Numbered from the stretch's first letter, positions 4,390 through 26,053 are shown. The stretch is DNA of 64,000 nucleotides from Candidatus Kapaibacterium sp. (GCA_963665665.1 OY762428.1:4736001-4800000), one strand, 5' to 3'. Notes: generated by a model not told the origin, from the sequence alone. Program-made: numbers and translations.

Positions 4390-4401
4390 TTTTTCCTCCC
4401 C

Positions 4402-6471
4402 TTATTTCTTAATTATTATTGGTGTATCTGATAATTTCTGCCTTTCTGCAATAACCGACCTGAAGCCCGGCCAGTCAGCGGATTCATAAAGGCGCTTTTC
4501 AAATCTGAGAGTTGATTTCAGATTTATTTTCTTCCCTTTCACAGTATATTTTGCCTTGAATGAAGCAGGCTTCGTTTCAATATCAGTGAAATCTGGAATA
4601 AATTCAACTTTACCATCAGCAATTTTTATATTTTCATCAATTTCTACCAGTTTGGAACAACCGATCCTGAAACCGTATTTCCTTTCAGTCAGGCTTGTAT
4701 CCATTAGGAATTCGGTATTAATTGATTCCTTAAGCGGATCTAAGGCAGTAATCGGAATAAATCTTTCTTCACCTGCAAAATTCTTTGAATAGTCCGGTAT
4801 TGTAAAACTAATTTCGATTTTAACCGGATCAGAATAATCAGAAGGATCGCCGAATTCAAAGTCATCAACAGTGGCAACAGGCGATACGCTTTTCATGATT
4901 CTTGCTGCTCCTTCATTCCAATTGGATTTCCAGCTTCTTGAAAATGCCCGACGAACCCGGGAATCAGTTTGTCCTTCGGCTGTAAATATAAGTTTTCCTT
5001 TCAAAGTTCCGTTTTTGAGAAGTTCTGTTTCAGCATTAATCTTCAGGTAATGATTTTCAGCAGGGGATACCGGGGTAGTCATAATGTCTGCCCCGCCAGG
5101 AATACCCATAAGAAATTGCTGCTGCTGTTCAGCGCTGGACCATAACTCTCTGACACCGGGAACCCATGTCGGGTCGAGAAGTATCCAGTCACCATTTTTG
5201 AGTTTTGCAACAGTAACACTGTGGTTAAACTGATCGGCAGGTATTTTGTCAATCCTCGAACCGGCCATTGTCATTGCTGCATAGGATTCGAATCCTGCTG
5301 CCCTTAGCATAGTTATCAGCATTCCGGCCTTGTCCTTACAAACTCCGCAGCGGTCTGCAAAAGTCATTTCTCCTTTGTGAAGAGTATATCCTTCGCCTTC
5401 GCCCATTGATATACCCGAGTATCTGATTTCATCGGCACACCAGTGGGTAAGTATCTGAATTTTTTCCATTTCGTCAGATACTCCGCTAAGCAGTTCATCA
5501 GTTTTAGCCTGAACTTCCGGAGTTACTTCAAAGCTACCGTAATCTTCATTAACGCCGTGGAACCACACTGCTTTCTGATACCAGTCCCTGCTTGTAGAAA
5601 CAAGTAGCTTTGTTGCAACATCACTTGCCGCAAGCATGTTCGGTTCACCACGGAAAGGCATAATATCATTTTTGTACCAGCAATATTCCGTTTTCCCGCT
5701 TCGATTGATTTCATCCTCTCTTCCGGCAATTTTTGCAGGTTCTTTCTCAATTTTATGGGGATTAATTCTGACAGTAATATCTTTGTCATTAACGGCATTG
5801 AAATGAATATACGATGAGACTTCACCATTGTAGATTTCATATTGAAGAGGTTTGTTTTCCGGGACATATATTTTATAAACTTTAGATAAAATTGGCGTAC
5901 CGGTCCAGAAATTTACAATATCATAAAAATGCCCCTTCATGGGAGGAATAAATTTATCTTCTTCATTATCCATAAGAAGGGCATAAGTAAATCCTTTTCG
6001 GAAGGTTATTATTTCAACGGCATCTCCGGGTTCGAGCCTGCCGATTTCTACTGCTTTGCTCCTTGCCCCCCAGTAGATCATTCTTGCAGGTGCAGGGTAG
6101 TCGTAAACTTTTTCTGCCGGAACAACATCCTCTGTACCGTCAGCCCTGTATATTTTTGCCAGTTTTATTGAAATATCAGCCGAAAGAGGTTCATATCCGA
6201 AAATCAATAAATTATTAGCTACTGCGCCCTTTGTATTCAATATCTTTACTAATCTGTGGTTATGTACATAGCTGAGTCCCGATTCCTGAACATCAACAAT
6301 TGTTGAATCAAAAATGATAACCGAAGCAGCATTGTTGAATTTCTCACCGCAGCCGGCATTTTCAATTATTTGCCTTACATCGTTGTTTTCCTGGGCTATT
6401 GATTCTGAATTTGTAGTATAAAAAATTAATAAAATCAGAAATAGTGGTATGATAGATTTTCTTGAGCTCAT
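4402..6471 (-). CDS. DUF3857 + transglutaminase-like (Cys-His-Asp) exported protein
   Basis: Signal peptide; IRYSG, GVCKDKA, FNHS, LLDPT motifs. Confidence 0.85.
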   Translation of the reverse strand: MSSRKSIIPLFLILLIFYTTNSESIAQENNDVRQIIENAGCGEKFNNAASVIIFDSTIVDVQESGLSYVHNHRLVKILNTKGAVANNLLIFGYEPLSADISIKLAKIYRADGTEDVVPAEKVYDYPAPARMIYWGARSKAVEIGRLEPGDAVEIITFRKGFTYALLMDNEEDKFIPPMKGHFYDIVNFWTGTPILSKVYKIYVPENKPLQYEIYNGEVSSYIHFNAVNDKDITVRINPHKIEKEPAKIAGREDEINRSGKTEYCWYKNDIMPFRGEPNMLAASDVATKLLVSTSRDWYQKAVWFHGVNEDYGSFEVTPEVQAKTDELLSGVSDEMEKIQILTHWCADEIRYSGISMGEGEGYTLHKGEMTFADRCGVCKDKAGMLITMLRAAGFESYAAMTMAGSRIDKIPADQFNHSVTVAKLKNGDWILLDPTWVPGVRELWSSAEQQQQFLMGIPGGADIMTTPVSPAENHYLKINAETELLKNGTLKGKLIFTAEGQTDSRVRRAFSRSWKSNWNEGAARIMKSVSPVATVDDFEFGDPSDYSDPVKIEISFTIPDYSKNFAGEERFIPITALDPLKESINTEFLMDTSLTERKYGFRIGCSKLVEIDENIKIADGKVEFIPDFTDIETKPASFKAKYTVKGKKINLKSTLRFEKRLYESADWPGFRSVIAERQKLSDTPIIIKK

Positions 6472-6596: not shown

Positions 6597-9575
6597 TTAC
6601 TTATTGATAACAAGCCTTGTCATTTGCTTGTTATTTCCTGAACTAAGTAAGACATGATAAACGCCACTGGACAGAGTTGACAGATTGATATCAATTGAGT
6701 TCATTCCGGGAGTATAATACTGTCCGTTAGTTGTGTAAACTTTGTTTCCCAGATTGTCGAAGATTGATATTTCAACATTTGATGGAACAAACTGTTTCCA
6801 ACTAATTGCAGCATTTTCTGATACAGGGTTGGGAGTTACTTTTATATCACTTCCGTCAATAACGAAATCTTCCACTCCTGTAACTTCATCATTCATAACT
6901 ATATCGTCAATATACCACCCGTCTTCATTCCTGAATTTGTTTGCAGCAACATTGAATTTTACCATCAGTGTATCACCGATATAATCTTCAAGTATAACTT
7001 TATCCAAAACCCATTTACTGGTTTCAATTTTGCCGGTAAATGAATCAGGATGGGTAGTTTCATCCGTTCTGAAAACTTCAGTCCAGGTCAGGCCGAAATC
7101 ATTACTTACATTTATTGTTGCATAATCTGTACCGGATCCGTCGATATTGGCAATATTATAAAAATTCAGCACAAACTTATCATCCGAAATAACAAACGGG
7201 GCGAACATTGAATAAAAATCACCTTCTTCGTAATCTCCGTCAGGGGAGTCATGCAAACTTGAAGGATTTGAATGTGCAGCAGTATTAACCACATCCCAAC
7301 TACCATCTGTATATGAAGGCATTATATTCGAGCTATTATCAAAATTCTCTTCGAAAGTTGCATAAGGTTCGCCTGCATAAACGATATATTCCTCTGTCAT
7401 CTGGCTTTCGTATTCAACTCCAGCGCGAGAAGTGACAGCCTTCATTGTTATTTTGTAGAACCTTTCAGTATCAAGGTTTAATTCTTTCGCAAGATCGGCT
7501 CCGGGAGATACTTCGTATTCAATATCAGTGTGCAATTCGTCATCAACGAATATCTGAATTTTTACAAGGTCGCCCGCAAAGCTGCTGTCCACGTGCATTG
7601 ACGGATTAATCCAGCTTAAATTCAGCCCGTTAGCAGAAGGAATATAACTGATATTGCCCGGCATCATCGGGACAGGGTTGCCACCCGCATAGGCTGAGGC
7701 AGAAATTGGTATGCTTTCGCCATATTGATTTTTGATTATTATCTGGTAATTGTATTCTTTTCCGCTTTCAAGCCCGCTGTCTGTATAGCTTGTTTTTCCT
7801 GATTCCAATTCAGCAATCTGACTTCCGTCACGGCTTAATAAAATTGTGTAATTGCCAATATCAGAACCCATAATAGTATGAGTCGGGTTAATCCAGGAAA
7901 GGTTTATCTGTTCAGGGTTTTCATATTCCCCTTTTGCCGTGAAATTTTCCGGCCTTAGCGGGCCAAGTGATAGCTTAACAGTGAATAGCTCAAGGTCATC
8001 AAAATTGCCATAAGTTGGTTCGGGCATCCAGAAAAGAGGGTAAAATTTTCCATTATAAGCTGTCATTGAAGTATAATCACCCCAATAGAAATTATTTGAT
8101 TCACCCTGAGGGCTAACATCATTCTGACTGGTGATGTACCATGTTTCAGGTGTTAATCGAATATTATTAAAATTCTCTCCGTCGGTTGAAACAGCCATGT
8201 AAGCATCAATTCCCTGGTTGTTTTCATCATTCCGGGAGCTGTAATAAAATACAGCCACGATACCTGTAACAGGATCGACTGCTATTGCCGGGAAGAACAT
8301 ATCATTTCTTACTTCCGCATCATCAATTCTCATCTTTTTCTCCCATGTTGTACCGCCGTCTTTGGATATTGTAAGAAACACTCCATAAGAACCGCCACCG
8401 TATATACGACCGGCCTGTACAACATAAATCCAGCCTTTCCTTGGCCCGTTAGAACAATCAACAGCTATTTCCGGAAGGGCGGACACACGCATATTCTGTT
8501 TGTCTTCAAAAATATAACGCCCTTCGTAAATTGTTCCTGCAGGGTAAACGCTTTGGGCTGTTATCGGTTTAGAAAGCCAGGTAAGGCCGCCGTCAGTTGA
8601 TTTCTGGAAAACAGCTTCTGTTTTTGTACTGGCTCCGGCACGGTATATAACATATATATCTCCGTTTGGTGCTACCACAGGCACCGGAGAGTGAGATCCG
8701 GATTCACCTCCTGATTCGGGAAGAATTATCTCATCAGACCATGTCTGGCCGGCATCAGTGCTGCGCGAGAACGCAATCCCGTCATTGATGATAAATTTTC
8801 TCCAGGTAACATATATATTGTTTTTGTTCGGAGAACTTTCGATATTATCGGCTACAATGGTATATCTGTCATGAAATGGCTTCCAACCGGATCCTTTTTC
8901 AAGGACAACCGGTTTGGGGTCTTCCCATGATTCTCCACCGTCTTTTGAACGGCAAACGAAAATACCGTTCTGGTCTCTTCCTGTCTGAACGGTTTGTGTA
9001 AAACCATAACAATAATAAGCCCATCCGTTTGCATCGAATGTGATTCCCGGGTCAAAAATTGTCATATCCCATTCATTGTCAGGAGTGTCAATATATAAAT
9101 CGAAATTTGATGGTGTTGTAGATTCTGTCCATGTATCACCACCGTCTTTTGTATAAAATGCAGGCATTTTATATCCGCCTGAAGGAATAAGGTAACGGCT
9201 GTCGTTGCTTGTAGCAATAATATTATCGGGATCTGTCGGGTTTAGGGCAATCCATGTTTCATGCTGGCCGGCAGCTGCATTAGAAACATTTACAAGTTCA
9301 AAACCGTTTTCGTTCAAAATCCTGTCTCTTGGAGGCTGCTTTTCAAATTTTTTGTAAACCTCGGCAGGTATAGGCCTTCCCTTGAAATAATTCTGGTAGT
9401 TCCATTTAATCATACCAAGCTGCTCCTGGCTGAGAGACTTTTCCGGCCTCATTAATATGGAAATGTTCCTGTATTCGTATTGAGCTGATGAATTAATAAA
9501 GGAGAAAGCGATTATTGGCAAAATTGCCATGAGGAGTCTTCTCGTCATTTTCCAAACCCTGTCATTTTTAAACAA
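6597..9575 (-). CDS. T9SS-secreted protein: BNR/Asp-box (sialidase-like) propeller + FN3 domains + type A CTD
   Basis: Repeated SxDGGxTW Asp-boxes; FN3-like segments; C-terminal PNP...IFDNLGNKV...LSSGVY...RLVINK. Confidence 0.85.
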   Translation of the reverse strand: MFKNDRVWKMTRRLLMAILPIIAFSFINSSAQYEYRNISILMRPEKSLSQEQLGMIKWNYQNYFKGRPIPAEVYKKFEKQPPRDRILNENGFELVNVSNAAAGQHETWIALNPTDPDNIIATSNDSRYLIPSGGYKMPAFYTKDGGDTWTESTTPSNFDLYIDTPDNEWDMTIFDPGITFDANGWAYYCYGFTQTVQTGRDQNGIFVCRSKDGGESWEDPKPVVLEKGSGWKPFHDRYTIVADNIESSPNKNNIYVTWRKFIINDGIAFSRSTDAGQTWSDEIILPESGGESGSHSPVPVVAPNGDIYVIYRAGASTKTEAVFQKSTDGGLTWLSKPITAQSVYPAGTIYEGRYIFEDKQNMRVSALPEIAVDCSNGPRKGWIYVVQAGRIYGGGSYGVFLTISKDGGTTWEKKMRIDDAEVRNDMFFPAIAVDPVTGIVAVFYYSSRNDENNQGIDAYMAVSTDGENFNNIRLTPETWYITSQNDVSPQGESNNFYWGDYTSMTAYNGKFYPLFWMPEPTYGNFDDLELFTVKLSLGPLRPENFTAKGEYENPEQINLSWINPTHTIMGSDIGNYTILLSRDGSQIAELESGKTSYTDSGLESGKEYNYQIIIKNQYGESIPISASAYAGGNPVPMMPGNISYIPSANGLNLSWINPSMHVDSSFAGDLVKIQIFVDDELHTDIEYEVSPGADLAKELNLDTERFYKITMKAVTSRAGVEYESQMTEEYIVYAGEPYATFEENFDNSSNIMPSYTDGSWDVVNTAAHSNPSSLHDSPDGDYEEGDFYSMFAPFVISDDKFVLNFYNIANIDGSGTDYATINVSNDFGLTWTEVFRTDETTHPDSFTGKIETSKWVLDKVILEDYIGDTLMVKFNVAANKFRNEDGWYIDDIVMNDEVTGVEDFVIDGSDIKVTPNPVSENAAISWKQFVPSNVEISIFDNLGNKVYTTNGQYYTPGMNSIDINLSTLSSGVYHVLLSSGNNKQMTRLVINK

Positions 9576-11225: not shown

Positions 11226-12080
11226 TTAGCTCCCACAACTAAAATCATCCCCGGCGGGGCAAAGAGCCGATTTATAACGGAAGGAATCAGCCGCCGCCTG
11301 GCACAGGCAGAACTCCCTGAACAACCCGTACATTGTCGATCCGCTGCCGGACATCAGGGCAAATTCAGCTCCCTGGTTATAAAGTTCTTCTTTGATTTTC
11401 TTCAATTCGGGATGAAGCCTGAAAGCATTTGGCTCAAAATCATTTATAATATGTTTCTTCAGATACTCCGGATCATCAATATTATCTGTCAGTATTTTCC
11501 TGAAATCTGTAACCGGGTAATTTTTATTTTCCCTGTCTAAGGCTTTGTATGACTGCGGGGTGGGAATATGAATGCCTGGAAACACCAGCAGAAGATGATA
11601 GGGGAGTTTGAAATCAAAATAATTAAGAATTTCACCCCTGCCTGTTCCTACAGCAGCCCCTTCCTTCAGGAAAAAAGGGACATCAGAGCCAAGTTCAAGC
11701 GCAATATTGAAAAGCTCCTGACAGCTTAGGCCGGCATTCCAGAATTCGTTCAATCCTTTCAGCACAGCCGCAGCATCTGAACTTCCCCCGCCAAGTCCGC
11801 CGCCGTCGGGTAATTTTTTTAACAGAGTTATTTTTGCACCTTTGTGTTCTGATTTAATATTTTTTCTTAAATTTACCGCGGCCTTGTAAACCAAATTTTC
11901 TTCATTTGGCAGATCAAGGTCGGGGATGCAGGTTAGTTCAAGCTTTTCGGATGGTTCTATAAATATCTCATCTGAAATGCAAACCGGGATAAATATGGTA
12001 TTTATATCATGAAACCCGTCGTCACGTTTTCTGAGTACCTGAAGCCCGATATTAATTTTAGCGTTAGCTTTTATTTTCAT
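11226..12080 (-). CDS. ispE: 4-diphosphocytidyl-2-C-methyl-D-erythritol kinase
   Basis: AKINIGL, GGGLGGGSSDAA, GSDVPFF, MSGSGS GHMP-kinase motifs. Confidence 0.95.
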   Translation of the reverse strand: MKIKANAKINIGLQVLRKRDDGFHDINTIFIPVCISDEIFIEPSEKLELTCIPDLDLPNEENLVYKAAVNLRKNIKSEHKGAKITLLKKLPDGGGLGGGSSDAAAVLKGLNEFWNAGLSCQELFNIALELGSDVPFFLKEGAAVGTGRGEILNYFDFKLPYHLLLVFPGIHIPTPQSYKALDRENKNYPVTDFRKILTDNIDDPEYLKKHIINDFEPNAFRLHPELKKIKEELYNQGAEFALMSGSGSTMYGLFREFCLCQAAADSFRYKSALCPAGDDFSCGS

Positions 12081-12104: not shown

Positions 12105-12755
12105 ATGGCCAAAAATAAGGAAATATCATACAAACAGGAAATTCTCAGGAAGAGTATTCACCTGTTTTCATTATCATTCCCGATTATTTATTATTTCATT
12201 ACCCGCGACCTGGCGTTGAAAGTACTAATACCAATGACCATTATTGCCGTTGTATTGGATTTGCTTAGCAAGCGCAAGGGAATTGCCAATAAAATTATTT
12301 ATGGTATCTTCGGGAAGATGCTGCGCGCTCACGAGACCGAGAAAAAGTTTACGCTCAACGGGGCTTCATGGGTATTAATTTCTGCAACAACCTGCGTTCT
12401 GATATTCCCTAAAATGTTGATGATAACCGGATTCAGCATACTTATCATTTCTGATATTTCAGCGGCACTGTATGGCCGAAGATATGGCAAACACAAATTT
12501 TTTGACAAATCGTATGAGGGGAGCGCAGCCTTCGTTGTTTCGGCAATCATCGTTGTTGCAGTAATAGGCTGGCTTACAAACGCTCCATTGCCTTATTATG
12601 TTATTGGATGGATTGCATGCTTTTTTGGCGCATGGGCCGAGGCTGCATCAGGCTGGCTGCGGGTTGATGACAATATGTCGATACCCTTGAGCGTCGGAGG
12701 AATTATGTGGATAGGAAATATTATCGGAGAGAGTTTTGGATTTACTTTTTTATAA
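12105..12755 (+). CDS. Dolichol/phytol (polyprenol) kinase family membrane protein
   Basis: RKSIH, SDISAALYGRRYG, KSYEGS and DDN motifs; multiple TM helices. Confidence 0.8.
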   Translation: MAKNKEISYKQEILRKSIHLFSLSFPIIYYFITRDLALKVLIPMTIIAVVLDLLSKRKGIANKIIYGIFGKMLRAHETEKKFTLNGASWVLISATTCVLIFPKMLMITGFSILIISDISAALYGRRYGKHKFFDKSYEGSAAFVVSAIIVVAVIGWLTNAPLPYYVIGWIACFFGAWAEAASGWLRVDDNMSIPLSVGGIMWIGNIIGESFGFTFL

Positions 12756-13254
12756 TTTCAGAATAAAAATATTATTATTTGTCAGCACAGTTTTCGTTTT
12801 GTTATCATGCTCGGGAGAAGAAAATTCATTCGATATAAAAGATTATTATATTGATGATTCCAACCAGGGCAGGATAGTTTTTTTCTTTATTGAAACTTCT
12901 GTTAAGGACAGTGCCGCACTTGGTAAACAGGCCGAAAAAATATTTCAAACTCACGAGGCTTATGCAAATGTCGATTCAGGTAAATTGAAAGTTATTATGG
13001 CTCATTTCTATTCAACTGCGGAAATTGGCGAAGTTCCGGAGGCCGACAGGCAGAGAATTATTGCCGATTACGGTGGAGAAGAGAATTTCCTGAGCAAGGT
13101 AAAATTCGTAAAGAACGGCTTTATGTATGCCGGTTTTTCCAGGAAGATAGGGCGGCTGGATATACCTGTGAATAAAGTTTTCCCTTCGCCTTTCATTGTT
13201 CCTGCTGACGGTTTCAAAGCTGCTGAAATAATCGCTGCAAGGAAGAGGAAGTAG
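12736..13254 (+). CDS. Hypothetical lipoprotein
   Basis: Hydrophobic stretch ending in LLSC lipobox; overlaps the upstream stop. Confidence 0.65.
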   Translation: MDLLFYNFRIKILLFVSTVFVLLSCSGEENSFDIKDYYIDDSNQGRIVFFFIETSVKDSAALGKQAEKIFQTHEAYANVDSGKLKVIMAHFYSTAEIGEVPEADRQRIIADYGGEENFLSKVKFVKNGFMYAGFSRKIGRLDIPVNKVFPSPFIVPADGFKAAEIIAARKRK

Positions 13255-13321
13255 ATAGGTGCTTATTCGGGGGATAAGTATGATGAAAATATCCTTTTAA
13301 AATAACTATTTCCGATACCAA

Positions 13322-13518
13322 AAGTATTTTTAGCTGATTTCTGTTTTGTCCCAATCTCCAAATTAAATTAGCAAATTTAAAATAACCAATGATTTAGCAG
13401 CGAATGTCAACTCTAACATTTAACCTTAACAACCCTCCATTCCTTATCTCTTTGTTCTTATGATTAAGGATACATCAGTTATTGATTTTTATTTATTCTC
13501 GCCCCGAAGGGCGGGGGG
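13322..13518. repeat. Intergenic direct repeat, copy 1 (~200 bp)
   Basis: Aligns along its length with 17481-17676; contains TCTTATGATTAAGGATACATCAGTT (13456-13480) and a CGCCC-CGAA-GGGCG hairpin. Confidence 0.92.
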
Positions 13519-13546
13519 TATTAAATAGAAGTATTAATATTTTAAA

Positions 13547-14716
13547 TCAATTATCAAAATAATAATGATATTCCTTTTGGAAAGTTGGATTATCCCTGAA
13601 TTTTAAATATTCATATTTATTTTTAAAATGAAATATTCGATTATTATCTAAACTATTGAATTTATTTTTTTCAGCATCAGTTCTAAAACAATCAGTAGAA
13701 ATTGAGAATATTTCAATTTTTCCTGAATTTAATTTTTCAAGTATGCATTTTGGTATTGTTATGATAGGGTTTGCTCTTACGTTGAGAGATTTTAATTTTT
13801 TTACATTGCATAAATTTTCATTAATTGAAGTTATCAAATTCCCTGATAAACTTAGAGTTTCCAGATTTCTACTATTTGCTATAGAATTAGGGATACTTTC
13901 GATATTATTGTTTGATAAATTTAGATACTTTAAACTTCTTGAATCGAATATATAATCTGGAATTATTTTCAAATTATTTCTTTCAATACTAAGATATTCT
14001 AATGAATTCATTTGAACAATTTGCTTTGGAATTGTTTCCAAATAGTTATTCTTTAAACTTAAATCAGTTATATTCAAATCAGAAATTACATGAAACAAGC
14101 TGTCTGAGTTATTTAACTGATTATTATTTAAATCTAAAAGATCCAAAGACTTGCATTTCGAAATTTCAGATGGTAAATTTCTTAACAAGTTATTATTCAG
14201 ATGCAAAGACTCTAAGTTCCTCAAATTGCCTATACCTATGGGAATATCTATAATGTAATTATCAGATAAATTAAGAAGATAAATCGATTTAATATCAAAT
14301 ATATTACCTGGGATTTCTTGCAATTGACAATTATTAATAACTAATCTGGTAAGTTGCAAGGGTTTCAGTTTATACAAAAACCTTTGGATATCACAGAATT
14401 CAAAGTTTAAACCATACAATTCAGGGCTATTATTTAATGATTCAAAAAAATTACCCCAATTATCAGAACTACAAGATATCAATCTTATATCTCCCAGTTT
14501 TTTACTAAGAAAAGAGAATTCAGATACTTCTTTGTCAAAAAAACAAAACTGAAAAGTCATAAACTGAATACCATCAAACGATTTAAGAGAGTCAACAAGT
14601 TTCTGGTCGATTATTTCATCTTTGATTAATAAAGAATATGTATTCCTTTCGATTTTTGAATATCCGACAGCTAAAGAAACCACAAATGTTATTATTAATA
14701 CAATTATCTTTTTCAT
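13547..14716 (-). CDS. Leucine-rich-repeat protein with signal peptide; candidate immunity protein
   Basis: Multiple LxxLxLxxNxLxxIP repeats; directly downstream of an Rhs-type toxin CT; very AT-rich. Confidence 0.88.
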   Translation of the reverse strand: MKKIIVLIITFVVSLAVGYSKIERNTYSLLIKDEIIDQKLVDSLKSFDGIQFMTFQFCFFDKEVSEFSFLSKKLGDIRLISCSSDNWGNFFESLNNSPELYGLNFEFCDIQRFLYKLKPLQLTRLVINNCQLQEIPGNIFDIKSIYLLNLSDNYIIDIPIGIGNLRNLESLHLNNNLLRNLPSEISKCKSLDLLDLNNNQLNNSDSLFHVISDLNITDLSLKNNYLETIPKQIVQMNSLEYLSIERNNLKIIPDYIFDSRSLKYLNLSNNNIESIPNSIANSRNLETLSLSGNLITSINENLCNVKKLKSLNVRANPIITIPKCILEKLNSGKIEIFSISTDCFRTDAEKNKFNSLDNNRIFHFKNKYEYLKFRDNPTFQKEYHYYFDN

Positions 14717-14734
14717 CTATAACTCCAATTATTT

Positions 14735-15685
14735 TTAATATCCATAAATCTTTAAAATCGCACCCCATTTTAATCTTATCTCTATATACTCCTTCCCAGA
14801 ATATCTGTAAAAAAAAAACCCGCCACCAAACACGTTATCATGATTAATAATACATCCCCATTGGTGAGGACGTAGTCTATTTTTATTATACTGCATACAT
14901 TTATCAGAATTTAAGGTTAAAAACGAATCACCGGACGAATTTGGAGGACACTCAGCATCAGCATCATGAGTATGTCCTAAGATAAAATAATCAGCTACTT
15001 CAACCAAATCTAAATACTTTTCAAACAGTTTTTCAGAATCAAAATATTCAGTTGTTCCATTTTCTTGATCAATTTCAAATTTTAGAAGCTCTCCTTCTTT
15101 ATTATAAATCATAATATAACCAAGCTCTGGAGTGTATCCTCTACTATTCGAACCTTTTTTATGATAATCATCTCCCCAACGAACTATATCTCGAACTCCC
15201 CTCAATAAATCTAACAAATGTTGAAATGGCGGTAATTTTAATGTTTTATCATCATTAATAATTTCTTTGAGTGTTTTTCCATCGATTTCATCTTTTGTTA
15301 AATCAGTAACATATTTTCCAGGGGTATCTGAATCTGGATTATGTTTTAATATATTACCCTCTTCATCATAAACTGTAGCTGATCCTCGAGCTGCTATTCT
15401 TACACTTGTACTAAAGAAATACCGACATGCATCAGGAAATAACAAAGAGGCAAATGATTCAAAACTTTTACAAAAAATTCTTAACCTATCTTTTTCTGCC
15501 TCCATAAACTCATCCAAATTATCATGAACCATATTAATGTAATCGTGACTTTCACTGTTCATATCAACATCGGCGAACTGAATTTTATCTCTCATCTTCT
15601 CCTTCTCCGGAGCAAGTCCTGAAGGATCGCGCCAGGTCATGGGTGAATTATAAGCATAGGAATATGGGTAGCTGCAATTTGTCAT
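14735..15685 (-). CDS. Orphan Rhs C-terminal toxin module with JAB/MPN-like domain
   Basis: N-terminal PYSYAYNSPMTWRDPSGL is the Rhs core end motif (PxxxxDPxG); later ELGY...GHTH-x9-SSGD resembles the JAMM motif. Confidence 0.78.
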   Translation of the reverse strand: MTNCSYPYSYAYNSPMTWRDPSGLAPEKEKMRDKIQFADVDMNSESHDYINMVHDNLDEFMEAEKDRLRIFCKSFESFASLLFPDACRYFFSTSVRIAARGSATVYDEEGNILKHNPDSDTPGKYVTDLTKDEIDGKTLKEIINDDKTLKLPPFQHLLDLLRGVRDIVRWGDDYHKKGSNSRGYTPELGYIMIYNKEGELLKFEIDQENGTTEYFDSEKLFEKYLDLVEVADYFILGHTHDADAECPPNSSGDSFLTLNSDKCMQYNKNRLRPHQWGCIINHDNVFGGGFFFYRYSGKEYIEIRLKWGAILKIYGY

Positions 15686-16521
15686 TGCAATTCTTTTCTG
15701 TCGTTATCGCTCATATTGTTTACCAGCCTGTCTTCAACTAATATTTTCATCTGCTGGATAGCTGTATTGTTTAGCATTTTAAGCCTCTCCGGCTGACTCA
15801 GTTTCTGCTTTATGAAATAGGCATTCAGATTTTCAAGGTTTGCCAGGCACACAAGCTGGGAAACATTGGCATAATCCCGGATATTGCCCTTCATTTCCGG
15901 GTTTTCATCTCTCCATTGTTTTGCGGTTTTACCAAACAGCGCCATGTTTAGCAGGTCAGCTTCGGAAGCATAAACAAAGTTGATTTGCGAGTTAGACAAC
16001 TCGGGCGGTATTAAATGTTCTTTTATCGCGTCGGTATGGATGCGGTAGTTTATTTTTGTAAGGTTGCGGCGAATATCCCAGCCAAGCTGCGTTTGTTCCA
16101 GGTCTTTCAGTCGTTGGAATTCTTTAATCAGATATATTTTGAACTCAGCGCTTATCCACATACCAAATTCAAATGCAATATCCTTGTGTGCATAAGTGCC
16201 GCCATAGCGTCCCGCTTTAGAAATAATACCGATAGCATTAGTGCTGCTAATCCAATTTTTGCTCGACAGTATAAAACCATTCGAACCGGATTCATTTCTA
16301 ATGTTACGGAATTCAGTAACATTAAAATCCGGATTATGCATTTTCTCCCATAAGCCTATGAATTCAACGGTATATCTTGTACTCATCCAGTGAGAGATAA
16401 CTAAACCCGTGGTTTCAGGATTTTTATATCTTGCAATATCAGTTAAAGAAATATAATCTGATTTCTGTAGAGTTGAAACTGTAATTTCCAGGCCTTTTAC
16501 TTCAATCTTTTTGTTTTTCAT
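15682..16521 (-). CDS. KilA-N domain DNA-binding protein
   Basis: DYISLTDIARYK...GRYGGTYAHKDIAFEFGMWISAEFKIYLIKEFQRLK signature. Confidence 0.92.
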   Translation of the reverse strand: MKNKKIEVKGLEITVSTLQKSDYISLTDIARYKNPETTGLVISHWMSTRYTVEFIGLWEKMHNPDFNVTEFRNIRNESGSNGFILSSKNWISSTNAIGIISKAGRYGGTYAHKDIAFEFGMWISAEFKIYLIKEFQRLKDLEQTQLGWDIRRNLTKINYRIHTDAIKEHLIPPELSNSQINFVYASEADLLNMALFGKTAKQWRDENPEMKGNIRDYANVSQLVCLANLENLNAYFIKQKLSQPERLKMLNNTAIQQMKILVEDRLVNNMSDNDRKELQ

Positions 16522-16690
16522 TGCATTATTCCATGTTTTAATAAGCCTTATCGCAATCTAACAATTTTCTGATAATAATTGAAACATAAGCTGCAATTCA
16601 TGATATTTCTATTCAATTCTTCAATCCCTTCAATGGAAGGTGAATAATTCCGGCTGGCTATGGGGGCTGTATTTATGCTATTTCTGTTCA

Positions 16691-16775
16691 CTCCTTTCCT
16701 TAACTCTCTAATCTTATGATTAAGGATACATCAGTTTTTGATTTTTATTCCATCCCCGCCCCGAAGGGCGGGGGA
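16691..16775. repeat. Intergenic direct repeat, copy 2 (partial, ~85 bp)
   Basis: Identical 25-bp core at 16712-16736 and CCCCGCCC-CGAA-GGGCGGGG hairpin at 16754-16773. Confidence 0.9.
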
Positions 16776-16810
16776 TAATTCATATTTAGATCAAAGATTG
16801 AAAATAATTT

Positions 16811-17404
16811 CTAATTTCCATTTTTTAATTTTCGTTCTTTTGTATTTGAACTTGGAAATATTTTACCATTATCATAAATTAGTTCCCCATTTTCATCCCA
16901 CATTTTACCCTCTCCTTCAGGATTTCCATCAATAATATTTATTTCCTTACTCTTTAAACCATTTGGATGCCACTCAATAAATTTTCCATGAAGTTTACAA
17001 TCTTTATATGATATAGATTTTTCAGGATTTCCATTGTCATAATACGTTGTGAAAGTACCATTTCCATTTGTTACCACTTGATTACCTTCTTTATCCCATG
17101 CATTTATGTTGAGAATATCGCCATCATCCGAAGATTCAACTATCATCATAATTTTTCCATTACTGTAATAATAATTAGCCGTACCAATCATTTTTCCCAT
17201 TTTTTGTTCACTTTCAAAATATAATTGTCCGTTTTCATAATAAAATATTTCTTTGCCATCAGGTAAACCATCTACTGTCCAAACCTTATGTTTTAAATTT
17301 CCATTTGCATATTTTTCAACGTGTAATTCTCTTTTTGCATTGTCACAAGAGAAAAATAAATTCAGCAGCATTAATGTCATAACAAAATTGAATACTCTTC
17401 TCAT
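16811..17404 (-). CDS. MORN-variant repeat lipoprotein (YwqK-like antitoxin/immunity)
   Basis: FFSC lipobox; repeated YYxNGx motifs. Confidence 0.85.
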   Translation of the reverse strand: MRRVFNFVMTLMLLNLFFSCDNAKRELHVEKYANGNLKHKVWTVDGLPDGKEIFYYENGQLYFESEQKMGKMIGTANYYYSNGKIMMIVESSDDGDILNINAWDKEGNQVVTNGNGTFTTYYDNGNPEKSISYKDCKLHGKFIEWHPNGLKSKEINIIDGNPEGEGKMWDENGELIYDNGKIFPSSNTKERKLKNGN

Positions 17405-17480
17405 AATTGTTTCCCTTCGATTTATTTAATATGGATTGTTTAGTAACTCATTCTGTATAAACTAATTATATAGTATAAAG

Positions 17481-17676
17481 AAGTATATTTTAACTGATTT
17501 CTGATTTTTTCCGATATTCAAATAAATTAGTAAATTAAAATAACCAATGATTTAGCAGTGGATGTTAACTCTAACATTTAACCTTAACTATCCTCCATTT
17601 TTTATCTCTCATTTCTTATGATTAAGGATACATCAGTTATTTATTTTAATTTATTCCCGCCCCGAAGGGCGGGGGA
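17481..17676. repeat. Intergenic direct repeat, copy 3 (~200 bp)
   Basis: Core at 17614-17638, hairpin at 17656-17673; colinear with copy 1. Confidence 0.92.
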
Positions 17677-17698
17677 TTGTTTTTTTTGTAGTAATATC

Positions 17699-18244
17699 TC
17701 AATATTCACTTCCATCCCTTTTCCAACGTTTAGGCTCTCCAATCAATCTTCCATTTTTATAATATACTTCCTTCCTAATATTTCCATTTCTGTACCAAGT
17801 AAATGATGTGTCAACCAATTTACTATTTCGATATGTAATCTGGGTTTCTTTTGTTCCATCAGGATAGTAATTAATATAGGTTCCATTCCCATCAATAACC
17901 ATGTGCTTACCGTCTTCACCCCAGTAGTTGCAATTTCTTAAACCACCGGAATTATTGAATTCCAATATTGCCCGAATTTTTCCGGATTCATAATACTGTT
18001 TATGAATGCCTGAATTTCTACCGGAAGTCATCTCTCCTTCATATTCTACTTGTCCATTCATGTAGTATAAGGTCATCTTACCATCCGGAACATTGTTAAC
18101 AACTTCATGAACTGACCTGATTTTACCGTTTCCATATTTTTCAATAACTTTTTCTCTTTTGCCGCAAGAACATATTACTAATATTGATATTAAGATTAAT
18201 AGTTTATAATACATTATTACATTCCTTTTCATTAATTTGATCAT
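17699..18244 (-). CDS. MORN-variant repeat lipoprotein (YwqK-like), paralog of 16811-17404
   Basis: ICSC lipobox; YYxNG repeats; shared EKYxNG, PDGK and GNGT motifs; true start may be a downstream Met. Confidence 0.85.
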   Translation of the reverse strand: MIKLMKRNVIMYYKLLILISILVICSCGKREKVIEKYGNGKIRSVHEVVNNVPDGKMTLYYMNGQVEYEGEMTSGRNSGIHKQYYESGKIRAILEFNNSGGLRNCNYWGEDGKHMVIDGNGTYINYYPDGTKETQITYRNSKLVDTSFTWYRNGNIRKEVYYKNGRLIGEPKRWKRDGSEY

Positions 18245-18272
18245 ATTTTAAAACTAACAATTCCAGATGAAA

Positions 18273-18602
18273 TTACTTCGATTTCAAAAATCCAATTGAC
18301 CGACGTTTTTGTTCCCTGCTGCCTGTTCCGGAAGCACGGTATCTCCAATCCCATTTGTCACAGTCTAAGGTCATAATATCGCATTCAAGGTCTTCATAGT
18401 CTCTGCTATAGTCGTAATCTACAAAATTTTTCAGAAAACTGCCAGAAGTATAATAAAATTCTTTTTGCTCATCATCTCCCCCGGCAGGATAATTATATAT
18501 TTTCCCAAGGCTTACAATAAATAAATTTGGAGAAATAAGCGCCCGTTTGTAATTGAATATCAGTATTAGGGATCGTTTTCCTGTATAAATTATGTAATTC
18601 AT
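18273..18602 (-). CDS. Hypothetical protein, possibly a toxin C-terminal remnant
   Basis: 109-aa ORF just upstream of an immunity-like gene; no recognised motif. Confidence 0.3.
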   Translation of the reverse strand: MNYIIYTGKRSLILIFNYKRALISPNLFIVSLGKIYNYPAGGDDEQKEFYYTSGSFLKNFVDYDYSRDYEDLECDIMTLDCDKWDWRYRASGTGSREQKRRSIGFLKSK

Positions 18603-18675
18603 TGATATTACAGAAAATAATATTTCTGATGCATCCTTCGGAATTGATTATTTGTGCAATAAATCCTTTGATTTG

Positions 18676-19245
18676 AGCTTCCCGAGCGTTCCCTCGTGCC
18701 TGCCGAGCATTCCCTCGTGCTTCCCGAGCGTTCCCTCATGCCTGCCGAGCGTTCCCTCATGCCTGCCGAGCGTTCCCTCGTGCTTCCCGAGCGTTCCCTC
18801 ATGCCTGCCGAGCGTTCCCTCATGCCTGCCGAGCGTTCCCTCGTGCTTCCCGAGCATTCCCCCGTGCCTGCCGAGCATTCCCTCATGCCTGCCGAGCGTT
18901 ACCCCGAGCTTCCCGAGCGTTCCCTCGAGCTTTCCGAGCATTACCCCGAGCCTGATTATCGCAGATATATGTCATGTTAGCGTTGGGATGTGCCGTCTTA
19001 GCGTTGGTTTGTGCCATCATAGCCTTGGTGCGTGTCATCATAGCCTTGGTGCGTGCCGTCTTAGCCTTGGTGCGTGTCATCATAGCCTTGGTGCGTGTCA
19101 TCATAGCCTTGGTGCGTGTCATCATAGCCTTGGTGCGTGTCATCATAGCCTTGGTGCGTGCCGTCTTAGCCTTGGTGCATGTCATCTTAGCGTTGGGATG
19201 TGCCGTATTAGCGTTGGTTCATGCCGTCTTAGCCTTGGTTTGTGC
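18676..19245 (-). repeat. Bipartite 21-bp tandem array, copy 2 (inverted relative to copy 1)
   Basis: On the minus strand: ~13 type-A units, the same ATGACATATATC(A/T)GCGATAATCAGGCTC junction as copy 1, then ~13 type-B units. Confidence 0.95.
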
Positions 19246-19730
19246 TTTCAAAAACACTTTTTCAGGTAAAATTTTACTCAGAAAACACAGAGTTTCACTT
19301 TTTTGATATAGAATTTCGTTCTATTGGTCCGTTCGGTCCCTATATTCAATCAATGCTTCGATCCGATAATGCCTCTGTTTGCTTTTACCGTGTGATTATT
19401 TCATTTATAAATATTGGAGTTTGCTATGCCCGGCAATGTTGAGAATCCATCAGCACATAATTTCCGTTGGATAGGGGAGGAAATGCATCAGGCGCTTTGC
19501 CGTGACAGTATTATCATTTCGTTGATACTCAGCAAATATGATATTATTATACATATCTGAAAAAATTATCCTTAATGTATCAAAAAATGAAATCAATTAA
19601 GCATGATGCTTCAAAAACAATATATTGAAATGTATAATTTTCTTAAATTTGATAAACCTTTTTCAATTTTTTTAAATTGAAGAGTCGTGATTTTTGAAAA
19701 ATATAAGTAAAATAAATTAGCAGAATTAAA

Positions 19731-20759
19731 ATGATTGATCTTAGAAGCGATACCTTTACCGTACCTACAGAGGAAATGAGACAGGCAATGGCAAATGCTG
19801 CCGTCGGCGATGATGTTTTTGGCGAAGACCCGACAGTGAATGAATTGCAGGACTATACAGCGAGGCTCCTTGGCAAAGAAGCCGGACTTTATGTTGCTTC
19901 CGGAGTGATGGGAAACCAGATAGCCCTGGCGGTTCATACCGAAGCCGGAGACGAAGTGATTATCGAGGAAGAAGCGCATATATTCTATTACGAGGCCGCG
20001 TCGCCCTCAATAATATCTCGTGTGCAGTTAAGAACGCTGCCTTCGGATAATGGAGTTATTCCCCTGGAAAAGATTGAAGCTGCTATTCGTCCTGATGACC
20101 TGCATTTCCCGAAAACCCAGCTTATATGCCTTGAAAATACACACAACAGGCACGGAGGAACAATTCTGCCTCTTGATTATTTAAAGGAAGTACGCATGCT
20201 GGCAGACAAACACGGCCTGGGGCTGCACTGCGACGGGGCCAGAATGTGGAATGCCTGCGCAGCGGCAAATATCAGCCCTGAGGAATTTGCCAGCCCCTTC
20301 GATACTCTTTCGGTGTGCCTTTCCAAGGGGCTGGGGGCGCCTGTCGGTTCAGTTATCGTAGGCAGCAGGGAGCAAATTGACAAAGCCCGCAAATGGCGCA
20401 AGAGGCTTGGCGGTGGAATGAGGCAGGCCGGAATTATTGCTGCCGGTGGCCTGTATGCCCTGAAAAATAACTTCACGCTGCTTCAGGGAACCCACGAAAC
20501 AGCGAAGGATTTTGCCGAAATAGTAAATGAATCGAAGAATATTGATATTTCCCGCGATGATGTGCATACCAATATCGTTATTTTCCGTATAGATAACAAA
20601 ATTGATGCCGCCGAACTTGAATCTAAACTACGGGACAGGGGAGTGCTCGTTATTCCTTTCGGGCCGGATAAAATCAGGGCTGTATTCCACTTCCAGACAA
20701 GCCGCGAGGATGCCCTTCGGGCAGCAAAAATAATCAGGGATACCGCCTGTGAATGGTAG
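19731..20759 (+). CDS. ltaE: Low-specificity L-threonine aldolase
   Basis: [44 protein letters not shown]-lysine motif. Confidence 0.92.
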
Positions 20760-20962: not shown

Positions 20963-21517
20963 ATGCCATATTTTGCAAGATTAAAAGAAGAATTGAAAGA
21001 CAATAGGTTCAGAAGAGAATGTAGTCCCGAAGAATTAAAAAAACTTGAAGAAACCTTAAATCTTAAACTTCCGGAATCCTATAGGGAATATATGCTGTTC
21101 TGTGGAAATTCGAGACCTTGGTTTTTTAGCCAGTATATAACAAATCTTTGTGGATATTATGATAATTTTTTAGAGATGAGAACCTTGTGCCAGGAAGCCA
21201 TGGATGAAAGTTATCCGGGGAAGTTTATATTGCCTGCCAATGCCCTTGTTTTTCAGGAATGGCAAGGTTATAAATATTATTTTTTTCTGGATAATGAAGG
21301 TGATGATCCCCCTGTTTATTTGTTTTATGCAAAATGTTGGAATGATAAGAATGATTTTAAAAAAGGTAGTGAGGAATACATATTAGCAAGAGACCAGGAA
21401 AACGGAATAATATCCAAATGCAACGATAGCTTTTCGGAATACATTAACTTTAAACTTGATAAAGCAATAAAAGATGATAGCTTTAAAAGTCATGATTATG
21501 AATATAGAGATAGATAG
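20963..21517 (+). CDS. SMI1/KNR4 (SUKH) family immunity protein
   Basis: SPEELKKLEETLNLKLPESYREYM...DDPPVY...SFSEY pattern; GGAG SD; TATATTTG box at 20913-20920. Confidence 0.85.
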   Translation: MPYFARLKEELKDNRFRRECSPEELKKLEETLNLKLPESYREYMLFCGNSRPWFFSQYITNLCGYYDNFLEMRTLCQEAMDESYPGKFILPANALVFQEWQGYKYYFFLDNEGDDPPVYLFYAKCWNDKNDFKKGSEEYILARDQENGIISKCNDSFSEYINFKLDKAIKDDSFKSHDYEYRDR

Positions 21518-24186: not shown

Positions 24187-24622
24187 ATTAACACCTGTAA
24201 GTTATAAGAAGTATCTTCAGTAATTTCTTCTAATAAATAAATAACACGTTCATAATTATAATATATTGTATTTATTAGATTTGTATAAATATCTACGCTA
24301 TTAAAATAATTATTTGGAATGTGTTTTAATACAATATTCAGCTTTTACTGTCCTTGCAACACTGATCCAATGGAAGGGCTATGAAATGCTCCCTATTGCT
24401 TAGACAAATAAAAGTATAGTTTATGGTGTTTATTAATCTATACTTCTTCTCTAATAAAATAAGAAAAAAATATGTAATAATATTAATTTTTCTTTTTTTT
24501 GCTACTTTTTTTTCTTTTTGTTAACAACCTGGAAATTGTGGATAACTTTCATTCTCCTTTCTATTTCTTTTTTTTATCAATTGCTTACCGGATTGCATTT
24601 TTTCACTTTTCCAACAAAGTTT

Positions 24623-25468
24623 TCAATTAACGAACCGCTGTTCGTTCATATATTTTTCAGCCGGAATCTGGTATTCAATTCCTGCGTGCGGCCTCGTGTT
24701 GTTATACCAATCGACATAAGCCTTTATACCGCCATAGAGATCTTTTCCGTCTTCGTAAGACTTCAGATACAGGTCTTCGTATTTAAAGCTCCGCCAGAAG
24801 CGTTCTATGTAAACATTGTCCAAGGCGCGGCCCTTGCCGTCCATGCTTACCTTTACATCAGCATCCAGAATCGTTTTCACAAAATCATTGCTCGTGAACT
24901 GACTGCCCTGATCCGTGTTTGTTATTTCCGGTTTCCTGGTTTTCAAAGACCTTTTTATTGTATCTATGCAGAACCCCTTCTCAAGGTTGTTCGATAATTC
25001 CCAGTCAACGATGTATCTGCTATAAACATCTATAATTGCTATAAGATACATAAATCCTTTACGCATCGGAATATATGTTATATCCAGGCTCCAAACCTGA
25101 TCCGGACGACTTATTTTCATATCCCTCAACAGGTATGGATAAATTTTGTGCTCCTTGTTCGGCTTGCTCGTGTCCGGTTGGGGATATATTGCCCGAAGTC
25201 CCAATAATTTCATTAATCGCCTGATTCGTTTATAGTTAACATGGTATCCCAAAGAACGTAAGTGTGCTGTCATTTTTCTGGCTCCATAAAATGGAGTAAT
25301 CGCGAATTGTTCTTTGATCAGCTTCATATATAGAATATTTGCTTCACTTTCACCCTTGGGTTTGTAATAATAACAGCTCCTGCTAATACCCAAAAGCTCG
25401 CACTGCCGGCTTATGCTAATTTCTTTATTATCAGCATCTACCATCTTCCTGCGTTCTTCTTTACTCAC
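24623..25468 (-). CDS. IS3 transposase OrfB (DDE/rve)
   Basis: WSLDITYI, NTDQGSQF and DNVYIERFWRSFKYE catalytic DDE motifs. Confidence 0.93.
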   Translation of the reverse strand: MSKEERRKMVDADNKEISISRQCELLGISRSCYYYKPKGESEANILYMKLIKEQFAITPFYGARKMTAHLRSLGYHVNYKRIRRLMKLLGLRAIYPQPDTSKPNKEHKIYPYLLRDMKISRPDQVWSLDITYIPMRKGFMYLIAIIDVYSRYIVDWELSNNLEKGFCIDTIKRSLKTRKPEITNTDQGSQFTSNDFVKTILDADVKVSMDGKGRALDNVYIERFWRSFKYEDLYLKSYEDGKDLYGGIKAYVDWYNNTRPHAGIEYQIPAEKYMNEQRFVN

Positions 25469-25748
25469 GGCCCAATTTTTTTTTTAACCAGTCTAATTCA
25501 ATTTTTAGCCGGCCTATTTCTTCATATAATACTGATTCGTCTTTTTCTTTTTTATTCTTCCCTGGCCCACGCTTGTTTTCAAATACTTCCTTTTCACTTT
25601 CTTTTAAATGCTTTTTCCACATGCTTATCTGGTTTGGATGAACCCCGTACTCCGATGCCAGCTCGGTTATTGTTTTTCTCTCTTGGACTGCCTCCAGGGC
25701 TACCTGCATTTTGAATTTTGAACTGTAATTTCTTCGTTTGTTTGCCAT
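25461..25748 (-). CDS. IS3 transposase OrfA (HTH); -1 frameshift into OrfB
   Basis: FKMQVALEA...ELASEYGVHPNQISMWKK HTH; A10 slippery run at 25476-25485. Confidence 0.92.
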   Translation of the reverse strand: MANKRRNYSSKFKMQVALEAVQERKTITELASEYGVHPNQISMWKKHLKESEKEVFENKRGPGKNKKEKDESVLYEEIGRLKIELDWLKKKLGRE

Positions 25749-26053
25749 TTGATGCTCCTTTTGATTTTTTGCAAGTTAAGAATATCTTATCTTAATTCGC
25801 TGTTATTTTTGAAGGAAGCCGCTCACTAAGTTGTAACGGTTTATTATCCGGACAGAATTATACTACTTATAAATTCCGGATATGCATTCAACTTGAATTT
25901 TTCGTAATAATTGAGTGAAATTGATAATAAATATTGATCTTTTGTAATATTACTAATTGTTTTAAATCTGCTAACATCTTACAGAATATGTGTTTAAAAT
26001 TGGCATGTTAATTGATAATAAATATTGAAAAAATAATTATCACGAGGTGATTT

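Follow-up and report, generated by a model that had tools for sequence, protein, structure and literature searches.

We analysed a 64,000-nucleotide (nt) stretch of DNA from Candidatus Kapaibacterium sp. (GCA_963665665.1 OY762428.1:4736001-4800000; hereafter the window), part of a 5.46 Mb genome that forms a single contig, and followed up a short non-coding repeat that stands three times in an island of toxin- and immunity-like genes. The island runs from 13322 to about 19521 and lies between housekeeping genes, with an ispE-like kinase gene (11226-12080) and a beta-eliminating lyase gene (19731-20759) as its flanks. Its gene strand is the minus strand, on which the anatomy of the repeat is read. 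Positions without a prefix are those of the window; the prefix C1 marks positions on the genome contig, and L numbers mark loci within the genome. An earlier note on this DNA had described the repeat as closing each of three modules and had proposed that it is a cassette boundary or recombination site for acquiring immunity genes, served by a recombinase acting in trans.

A repeat finder delimited an 84-nt unit in three co-oriented copies (13435-13518, 16691-16774 and 17593-17676; 80-89% identity to the reference copy), together with a 144-nt extension that is common to 13374-13517 and 17532-17675 at 90% identity, and blastn aligned the outer pair over 197 nt (13322-13517 with 17481-17675; 88%). 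We refer to the copies, all on the minus strand, as w1, w2 and w3. Copy w1 (13322-13518) is of a long form, with its hairpin at 13498-13518, its core at 13456-13480 and a long tail at 13322-13431; it follows a leucine-rich repeat (LRR) gene at the end of the island. Copy w2 (16691-16775; hairpin 16754-16774, core 16712-16736) is of a short form, follows a 197-amino-acid (aa) MORN gene and is 82-85% identical to the other full copies. Copy w3 (17481-17676; hairpin 17656-17675, core 17614-17638) is again of the long form and follows a 181-aa MORN gene. Read on the gene strand, the unit begins with a GC stem-loop bearing a UUCG loop, continues through an AT-rich spacer of ~20 nt and an identical 25-nt core, and closes with ~20 nt that end in a purine-rich, ribosome-site-like stretch. 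The hairpin starts 28 nt past the stop codon of the LRR gene, 36 nt past that of the 197-aa MORN gene and 23 nt past that of the 181-aa MORN gene. The earlier note had placed three same-orientation copies here, ~25-40 bp after the stop codons, each with an identical 25-bp core and a GC hairpin. The repeat finder and blastn recovered all three copies, the spacing came out close to that claimed, and the core and the hairpin are seen in each copy on the minus-strand reading.

When these copies are aligned with a fourth full copy found elsewhere in the genome, 67 of the 89 columns are invariant; shuffling the invariant columns 100,000 times gave 418 cases that reached an invariant run of 25. The match among the copies is more than chance. 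They diverge from one another by 9-18% overall, yet not one change falls in the 25 consecutive core positions. The repeat is also far better conserved than the neighbouring genes, with 89-97% DNA identity in its shared part as against 36% aa identity for the MORN proteins and 50% for KilA-N.

Pfam matches to LRR families, KilA-N and MORN_2 agree with the gene calls made earlier. The two MORN_2 lipoprotein-like genes, at 16811-17404 (minus strand, 197 aa; Pfam MORN_2 4.8e-17) and 17699-18244 (minus strand, 181 aa; 2.2e-14), are candidate orphan immunity genes, a role suggested by their context; MORN proteins of such kind are named by NCBI after an antitoxin family. Their products are the pair that is only 36% identical, which bears out the divergence of the cargo genes. 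A paralogue of the 181-aa gene (75% identical; C1:1838370-1838900) has no repeat after it, and DNA homology ends at its stop codon. The KilA-N gene (15682-16521, minus strand, 279 aa; Pfam KilA-N 7.6e-20) is represented by paralogues at five other loci of the genome; two of these adjoin the same leader or hairpin (L017:9640-10309 and L019:7909-9164), and paralogues occur in unrelated contexts too. The LRR lipoprotein-like gene (13547-14716, minus strand, 389 aa; LRR Pfam families 2e-21) is a plausible immunity gene of the toxin cassette beside it, to judge by its position; PMC3482391 names LRR immunity proteins as a class.

Judged by its homologies, the island is a decayed RHS-type polymorphic-toxin locus. 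Its upstream part holds an open reading frame (ORF) at 18273-18602 (minus strand) in which the real homology covers about 18300-18482. Since this segment is 82% identical to residues 1864-1924 of P0002, a 2415-aa protein with a signal peptide-like start and an RHS_repeat match (31.5 bits; Pfam cut-off 22), the ORF is a leftover of the core of a full-length RHS-type toxin. The P0002 residues that it matches lie 165 residues before the core end of that protein. The core end itself is represented by the ORF at 14735-15685 (minus strand, 316 aa), a putative orphan polymorphic-toxin C-terminal cassette that opens with a conserved core-end junction (..DPxGL; here PYSYAYNSP..DPSGL) in residues 6-45. 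A search of 1.84 billion representative proteins returned its own sequence and 34 others, all matching within residues 6-89, with P0002 residues 2088-2143 as the best relative; for residues about 90-316, the presumed toxin domain, there was no relative in that collection and no Pfam or NCBIfam family. A core-end profile that we built from 12 family core ends among these relatives scored 52.6 bits on the start of the ORF and 43-50 bits on two other cassettes, and TIGR03696 reached only 13.4 bits on it, below the cut-off of 32.5.

The leader of this cassette has decayed. It occupies 16548-16691 (minus strand), directly continues w2, has a GTG start and reads VNRNSINTAP...; at 16630-16650 it reads ELFTFH and then a stop. 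This piece makes up the upstream half of the toxin's core end; the downstream half (PYSYAYNSP..DPSGL) opens the ORF at 14735-15685. The KilA-N gene sits between the two halves, and its stop overlaps the start of the toxin ORF. Positions 16637-16693 share 84% DNA identity with the 5' end of an intact 372-aa orphan ORF (L017:10889-12007). A relative of 96-98% identity, present at ~4x depth in a sequencing run of another study (X4), carries 16 additional nt following 16646, at a place where w2 falls short of the intact paralogue. P0002-type toxins occur in 36 of 100 other genomes of the family. In the genome under study, the P0002 family is represented by remnants and three orphan cassettes only (one in the window, two at C1:4310-4313 kb), and no full-length copy was found there. 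A scan of public genome contigs with P0002 gave one distant locus at 44% identity, which is not the source of P0002.

The repeat family is tiny: besides four full copies it has a partial core and a degenerate hairpin. A DNA search of the genome gave five real matches: the three window copies, the fourth full copy at C1:1754449-1754614 and a 34-nt match at C1:4309626-4309659 that consists of half of the core and what follows it (the partial copy, L017:9600-9640). Ten further matches of 16-25 nt all had expectation values (E) above 0.005. As exact strings, the hairpin core string and the 5' half of the core each occur four times and the 3' half of the core five times. An nhmmer profile of the four 85-nt units added the degenerate hairpin at C1:4457909-4457943 (L019:7909-7943; E 0.12), which we count as the sixth copy, and no further genome match below E 1. 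The copies are not scattered at random beside housekeeping genes; every one lies in a toxin/immunity context.

Outside this genome, the blastn comparison proposed earlier found the core in none of 40 relatives' genomes drawn from the same family and order (none of the same genus). The sole match among the 40, a 33-nt AT-rich stretch in one genome (G021), was set aside as chance. A 22-nt core string had no match in public genome contigs, and a 20-nt core string had none in metagenome contigs and none in viral contigs. Searched for alone, the hairpin 22-mer turned up in 24 metagenome contigs (40-71% GC; 25 sites), where its contexts are unrelated; several of these sites have a classic T-run, and the core follows none. 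Because the hairpin recurs in unrelated contigs without the core, the stem-loop is a generic design and the whole unit is lineage-specific. Contigs of the relative in X4 cover the flank and w1, parts of KilA-N and the tail of w2. Bins 13988-15231, 16787-17097 and 17720-18030 have little or no cover, which at ~4x and with no bridging contig is not evidence of different cassettes. A further run with the label of this species (X5) supplied no contig for the window.

What the copies are joined to differs from one to the next. Homology begins sharply at the hairpin, 17-36 nt after the stop codons of five unrelated genes, namely the two MORN genes, the LRR gene, a 124-aa gene at the fourth copy and a 260-aa lipoprotein-like gene at the sixth; tabulated in this way, the upstream genes all belong to island or toxin/immunity contexts, and the repeat is supported as a marker of module boundaries in a toxin/immunity island. 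On the other side, the short form (w2 and the half-core copy) runs on into the leader of an orphan cassette, and the long form (w1, w3 and the fourth copy) runs ~115 nt into different sequence. At the end of this long tail, the fourth copy has GGAGG and the start codon (ATG) of a gene for a 205-aa Cys-rich secreted protein; next comes a gene for a 744-aa BNR/type IX secretion system (T9SS) protein, and several paralogous pairs of these two genes stand elsewhere without the repeat. Copies w1 and w3 share one truncated, start-less version of the end of that tail, so one of them is a copy of the other.

Further junctions fall in or near the core. The sixth copy lacks the 45 nt in which the core would lie, and its hairpin and spacer lead directly into the cassette leader. 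At the half-core copy, a second toxin-core remnant (94% identical to 18338-18472) is joined to the 3' half of the core, and a contig of X4, a single low-depth metagenome contig, matches the long tail as far as 17617, the 3' edge of the core, and is unlike it beyond. There are thus several distinct junctions within about 45 nt around the core, and since the copies are joined to different partners within so short a span, recombination has acted at the repeat. An invariant core combined with junctions so closely placed makes a site-specific or a regulatory role possible. The alternative named in the earlier note, that the copies are only the 3' flank of duplicated rhs loci, holds in large part: the locus is a decayed RHS locus, and w2 continues into leader and core-end homology, known as the substrate on which exchange acts.

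The fourth copy lies between two of 18 near-identical copies of an IS3-family insertion sequence (IS; C1:1752489-1753913 and 1758111-1759535), a bracketing that fits passive relocation of its segment; a trapped plasmid fragment lies alongside. The 18 copies of this element are 98-100% identical, and one stands in the window at 24400-25830. The position of the fourth copy would suit an account in which all copies are neutral relics of a small number of recent segmental duplications and the hairpin and core have no function now; the copies are few, their loci are all decayed or IS-scrambled, two changes break the stem of the sixth hairpin and the hairpin of w1 is weakened. We regard this as quite improbable, as the overall divergence between copies has left the 25 core positions unchanged and the neighbouring genes have diverged far more than the shared part of the repeat.

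A different origin, as a small non-autonomous mobile element of 85-200 nt that inserts downstream of genes, would explain why the 5' side of the unit starts so abruptly, at the hairpin, after each of five unrelated genes, and a GC-rich palindrome within an AT-rich genome recalls repetitive extragenic palindromic (REP) elements. Such an element, resembling these or miniature inverted-repeat transposable elements, is nevertheless extremely unlikely here. Neither terminal inverted repeats nor a target duplication were seen at the ends of the repeat, its 3' side merges into gene starts with no clean end, the copies number only four to six, with no further nhmmer match at E below 0.1, and all of them are in toxin/immunity contexts.

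The layout of the island, gene-repeat-gene-repeat-operon-repeat in one orientation, is that of a small cassette array, and it raises the question of whether the unit is a site-specific recombination site, of an integron attC-like, rAID-like or Xer type (rAID, recombinase-associated acquired interbacterial defence), where immunity and toxin cassettes would be captured and rearranged by a recombinase whose gene lies elsewhere. The invariance of the core would fit such a site, as would the three different junctions inside the core (L017), at its 3' edge (X4) and between spacer and leader (L019). We listed 49 window ORFs of at least 80 aa and scanned the 47 that do not overlap, examining 18652-19269 and 12736-13254 separately; among those 47 there was no recombinase and no Phage_integrase match, and the ORFs scanned around the other copies, to a distance of about 10 kb, included no recombinase either. 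The genome encodes 10 tyrosine recombinases, a number that leaves candidates for action in trans, but the nearest, 16.6 kb from w1, is XerD (374 bits against 329.6), a housekeeping recombinase. No integron integrase was found in the genome (best TIGR02249 score 90.5 bits; cut-off 265).

Nor did the contigs compared contain an excised joint at the repeat. In the source sample, contigs are interrupted at the repeats, an effect to be expected of repeated sequence. The sole joint that skips between modules at the repeat, from 16723 to 18338 (X1 and X3), was rejected as a sign of excision, being the paralogous locus at C1:4309 kb.

Integron arrays consist of a gene followed by an attC repeat, iterated in one orientation, and attC is a long imperfect palindrome with paired outer boxes. 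The island resembles attC clusters that lack an integrase in its iterated gene-then-repeat order and in the palindrome at the 3' end of each unit, but it has no IntI and a short perfect stem of 8 bp. The long copies do contain complementary 7-mers ~100 nt apart, ending in AAC and starting in GTT, which could be taken for outer boxes. These are AT-rich, about as frequent as expected by chance on a rough estimate, and off the attC purine/pyrimidine consensus, and they are absent from w2, which has no right-hand arm. The modules of pdif/Xer systems are bounded by 28-bp two-arm sites in alternating orientation; here all copies are direct repeats, and no dif-type two-arm dyad is visible in the core on inspection.

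The rAID systems of Bacteroidales offer a closer layout, and as described in PMC12247911 their defining feature is an adjacent tyrosine recombinase. Shared with them, on that description, are co-oriented short immunity-like genes with conserved intergenic motifs and a T9SS-bearing organism (Por_Secre_tail matches occur here); the island genes of 181, 197, 279, 316 and 389 codons on one strand, with three copies of the repeat, have the layout of a rAID-type array. The island differs from what that text describes in having no adjacent tyrosine recombinase, only three modules, and a toxin remnant with an orphan cassette. An arrangement that is rAID-like does exist elsewhere in the genome, at L046 (C1:624001-642000; genes at L046:2269-3606, 3691-4950 and 7734-8858), where a divergent 445-aa tyrosine recombinase lies directly upstream of two orphan Rhs-CT modules (CT, C-terminal toxin region). 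The modules score above the cut-off for TIGR03696, and the recombinase is preceded by another 21-nt tandem array (L046:1192-2051). The repeat studied here is absent from this locus, the one recombinase-linked Rhs array of the genome. L046 has a dispersed repeat of its own, ~250 nt long and GC-hairpin-rich, with three copies in 18 kb (L046:584-827, 12791-13041 and 17196-17446). Polyimmunity loci, described in the relevant part of PMC3482391 as tandem unrelated immunity genes (LRR and repeat proteins) that vary between strains and sometimes lie beside XerC/D recombinases, share with the island its tandem immunity-type genes of unrelated families; compared with that description, the island is small, has no adjacent recombinase and is set in a decayed toxin locus.

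We therefore hold only part of the cassette-system proposal to stand, namely the module boundary and the mosaic joints; there is no integrase, no recombinase linked to the repeat, no excision joint and no copy outside the lineage. Action of a recombinase in trans agrees with the finding of none in the window, but the nearest is XerD and none is associated with the repeat. With four to six copies in one lineage as well, we judge a site-specific recombination site very unlikely. Equally slim are the prospects of a more particular version, in which hairpin and core form a dedicated capture site that swaps immunity and orphan-toxin modules in decayed RHS loci with a factor acting in trans, of which KilA-N would be one candidate. 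If it were true, it would amount to an integron-like cassette system for interbacterial defence without a linked integrase.

The GC stem-loop is very stable. Folding energies are -16.8 to -23.2 kcal/mol in three copies, with w2 at -21.1 kcal/mol (z -2.83), and the short perfect 8-bp stem carries a UUCG loop that is closed by C-G on the gene strand. C-G-closed UUCG loops have special stability. A single G-to-A change in the stem of w1 leaves the gene strand with a C.A mismatch (-11.2 kcal/mol) and the plus strand with a G.U pair (-17.3 kcal/mol). Structure beyond the hairpin has no support: Rfam gave no match in the window and four weak ones in 13000-19500, none of them on the repeat, and there were no compensatory pairs among 41 and none among 19 predicted pairs in alignments of three and four sequences, which are too alike for the fold to be assessed by covariation.

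These data bear on another possibility, that the core is a selected cis-regulatory element, either a promoter or operator possibly bound by KilA-N or an RNA leader for the following module, and that its spread is secondary. The core is invariant against variable flanks, it is placed 5' of a start codon between the stem-loop and the ribosome-site-like stretch, and a KilA-N gene lies just downstream of two of the five core copies and upstream of the sixth hairpin. We consider this role possible but unlikely. Besides the Rfam and covariation results, no gene follows w1, the downstream start codon is destroyed 3' of both w1 and w3, and KilA-N paralogues are found in unrelated contexts as well.

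The closest model is that of orphan Rhs-CT/immunity arrays (PMC3482391, with cases from Salmonella and E. coli in PMC3150448 and PMC3967940, as far as the relevant sections of these papers describe them). In common with such arrays, the island has a C-terminal toxin cassette with a core-end junction, an upstream, co-oriented remnant of the main toxin, a direct repeat at each module boundary and immunity-like genes after the toxin. It differs in that only one of the three window copies (w2) continues into core-end DNA, and w1 and w3 run into unrelated DNA. The shared part here is non-coding, consisting of hairpin, spacer and 25-nt core, and the profile sees no coding in it; moreover, two modules have immunity-like genes only, and the KilA-N gene splits the core end. 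The same genome has a classic array at L045 (C1:937001-956500), with at least nine Rhs-CT modules and core-coding direct repeats of 64-300 nt, and a full-length 2757-aa RHS protein at C1:1359841. Two relatives (G088 and G020) have P0002-family arrays with core-coding direct repeats at the same position.

In these comparator arrays the direct repeats, core-coding in their case, stand at the same place. We favour, with slightly better than even confidence, the reading that the repeat is a recurring joint between modules of a decayed RHS-type toxin/immunity array. Its anatomy, copy number, decayed-toxin context and mosaic junctions are established, and from them we infer the following course. The stem-loop would most likely end or stabilise the transcript of the preceding small secreted, immunity-like gene, and the rest of the unit may be the leader region of the next module, the short form leading into the start of an orphan toxin cassette and the long form into the region where another secreted-protein gene begins. 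The unit would have been copied along with the modules by duplication and general recombination, whether homology-driven or illegitimate. It could then have provided shared homology between modules, as the core-coding repeats of orphan Rhs arrays do, and a dedicated recombinase would not be required. By analogy, the unit may thus work like the boundary repeats of orphan Rhs arrays, and its layout recalls rAID and integron arrays; it lacks the recombinase that defines the latter two and shares the core-coding repeat of the first only in part.

Several observations weigh against the array-joint reading. All copies come from one genome. For homology to begin so sharply at the hairpin after five unrelated genes, joining must have recurred at a single point, and an invariant 25-nt core amid varying surroundings is not explained by a mere remnant. 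On the gene strand, no U-run follows the hairpin; the only terminator-like call was for w3 and on the plus strand, and the substitution in the stem of w1 is tolerated on the plus strand only. The core-end profile recognised neither the core nor the next 20 nt nor the first 13 codons of the leader, and since the profile of family core ends fails on the core, a coding origin is unsupported. We had considered such an origin because the partial copy reads in frame from the toxin-core fragment through the core, where it resembled P0002 ahead of its core end; comparison with P0002 showed the window reading (..WDWRYRASGTGSREQKR) to be ancestral and the partial copy to be a derived joint. The 76-aa reading of the partial copy, compared with longer proteins, gave three candidates, none of which scored, weak evidence in itself, and the coding origin was dropped.

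Two further features adjoin these modules. A dispersed element with two 21-nt tandem-repeat arrays (18476-19521, no strand assigned), which has 31 loci across the genome, bounds the island upstream and truncates the toxin remnant on its 5' side. It also occurs at 1-364 in the window; copies measure 0.3-1 kb and combine two 21-nt arrays with a conserved 250-nt flank. In at least ten of them a single long frame stays open across the two arrays and the ends are similar, heptad-like PSVPxCL and SLGxCxx units leading to a terminal ..CFQKHFFR. Across the 31 loci the element had no Pfam or Rfam match and no consistent neighbouring or downstream gene; it may or may not be coding. A gene for a SUKH-1 (SMI1/KNR4) protein (20963-21517), a member of a common immunity-protein family, lies a little beyond the island on the opposite strand.

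The case concerns one lineage with four to six copies and no sign of active exchange, and it mainly shows a toxin locus decaying into an immunity island. The way in which new toxin/immunity pairs are joined to the conserved portions of polymorphic-toxin loci is as yet little understood. A boundary formed by a conserved non-coding unit, and not by core-coding DNA, would be a small but concrete handle on this linkage, and one that could be tested in a single cultivable environmental bacterium.

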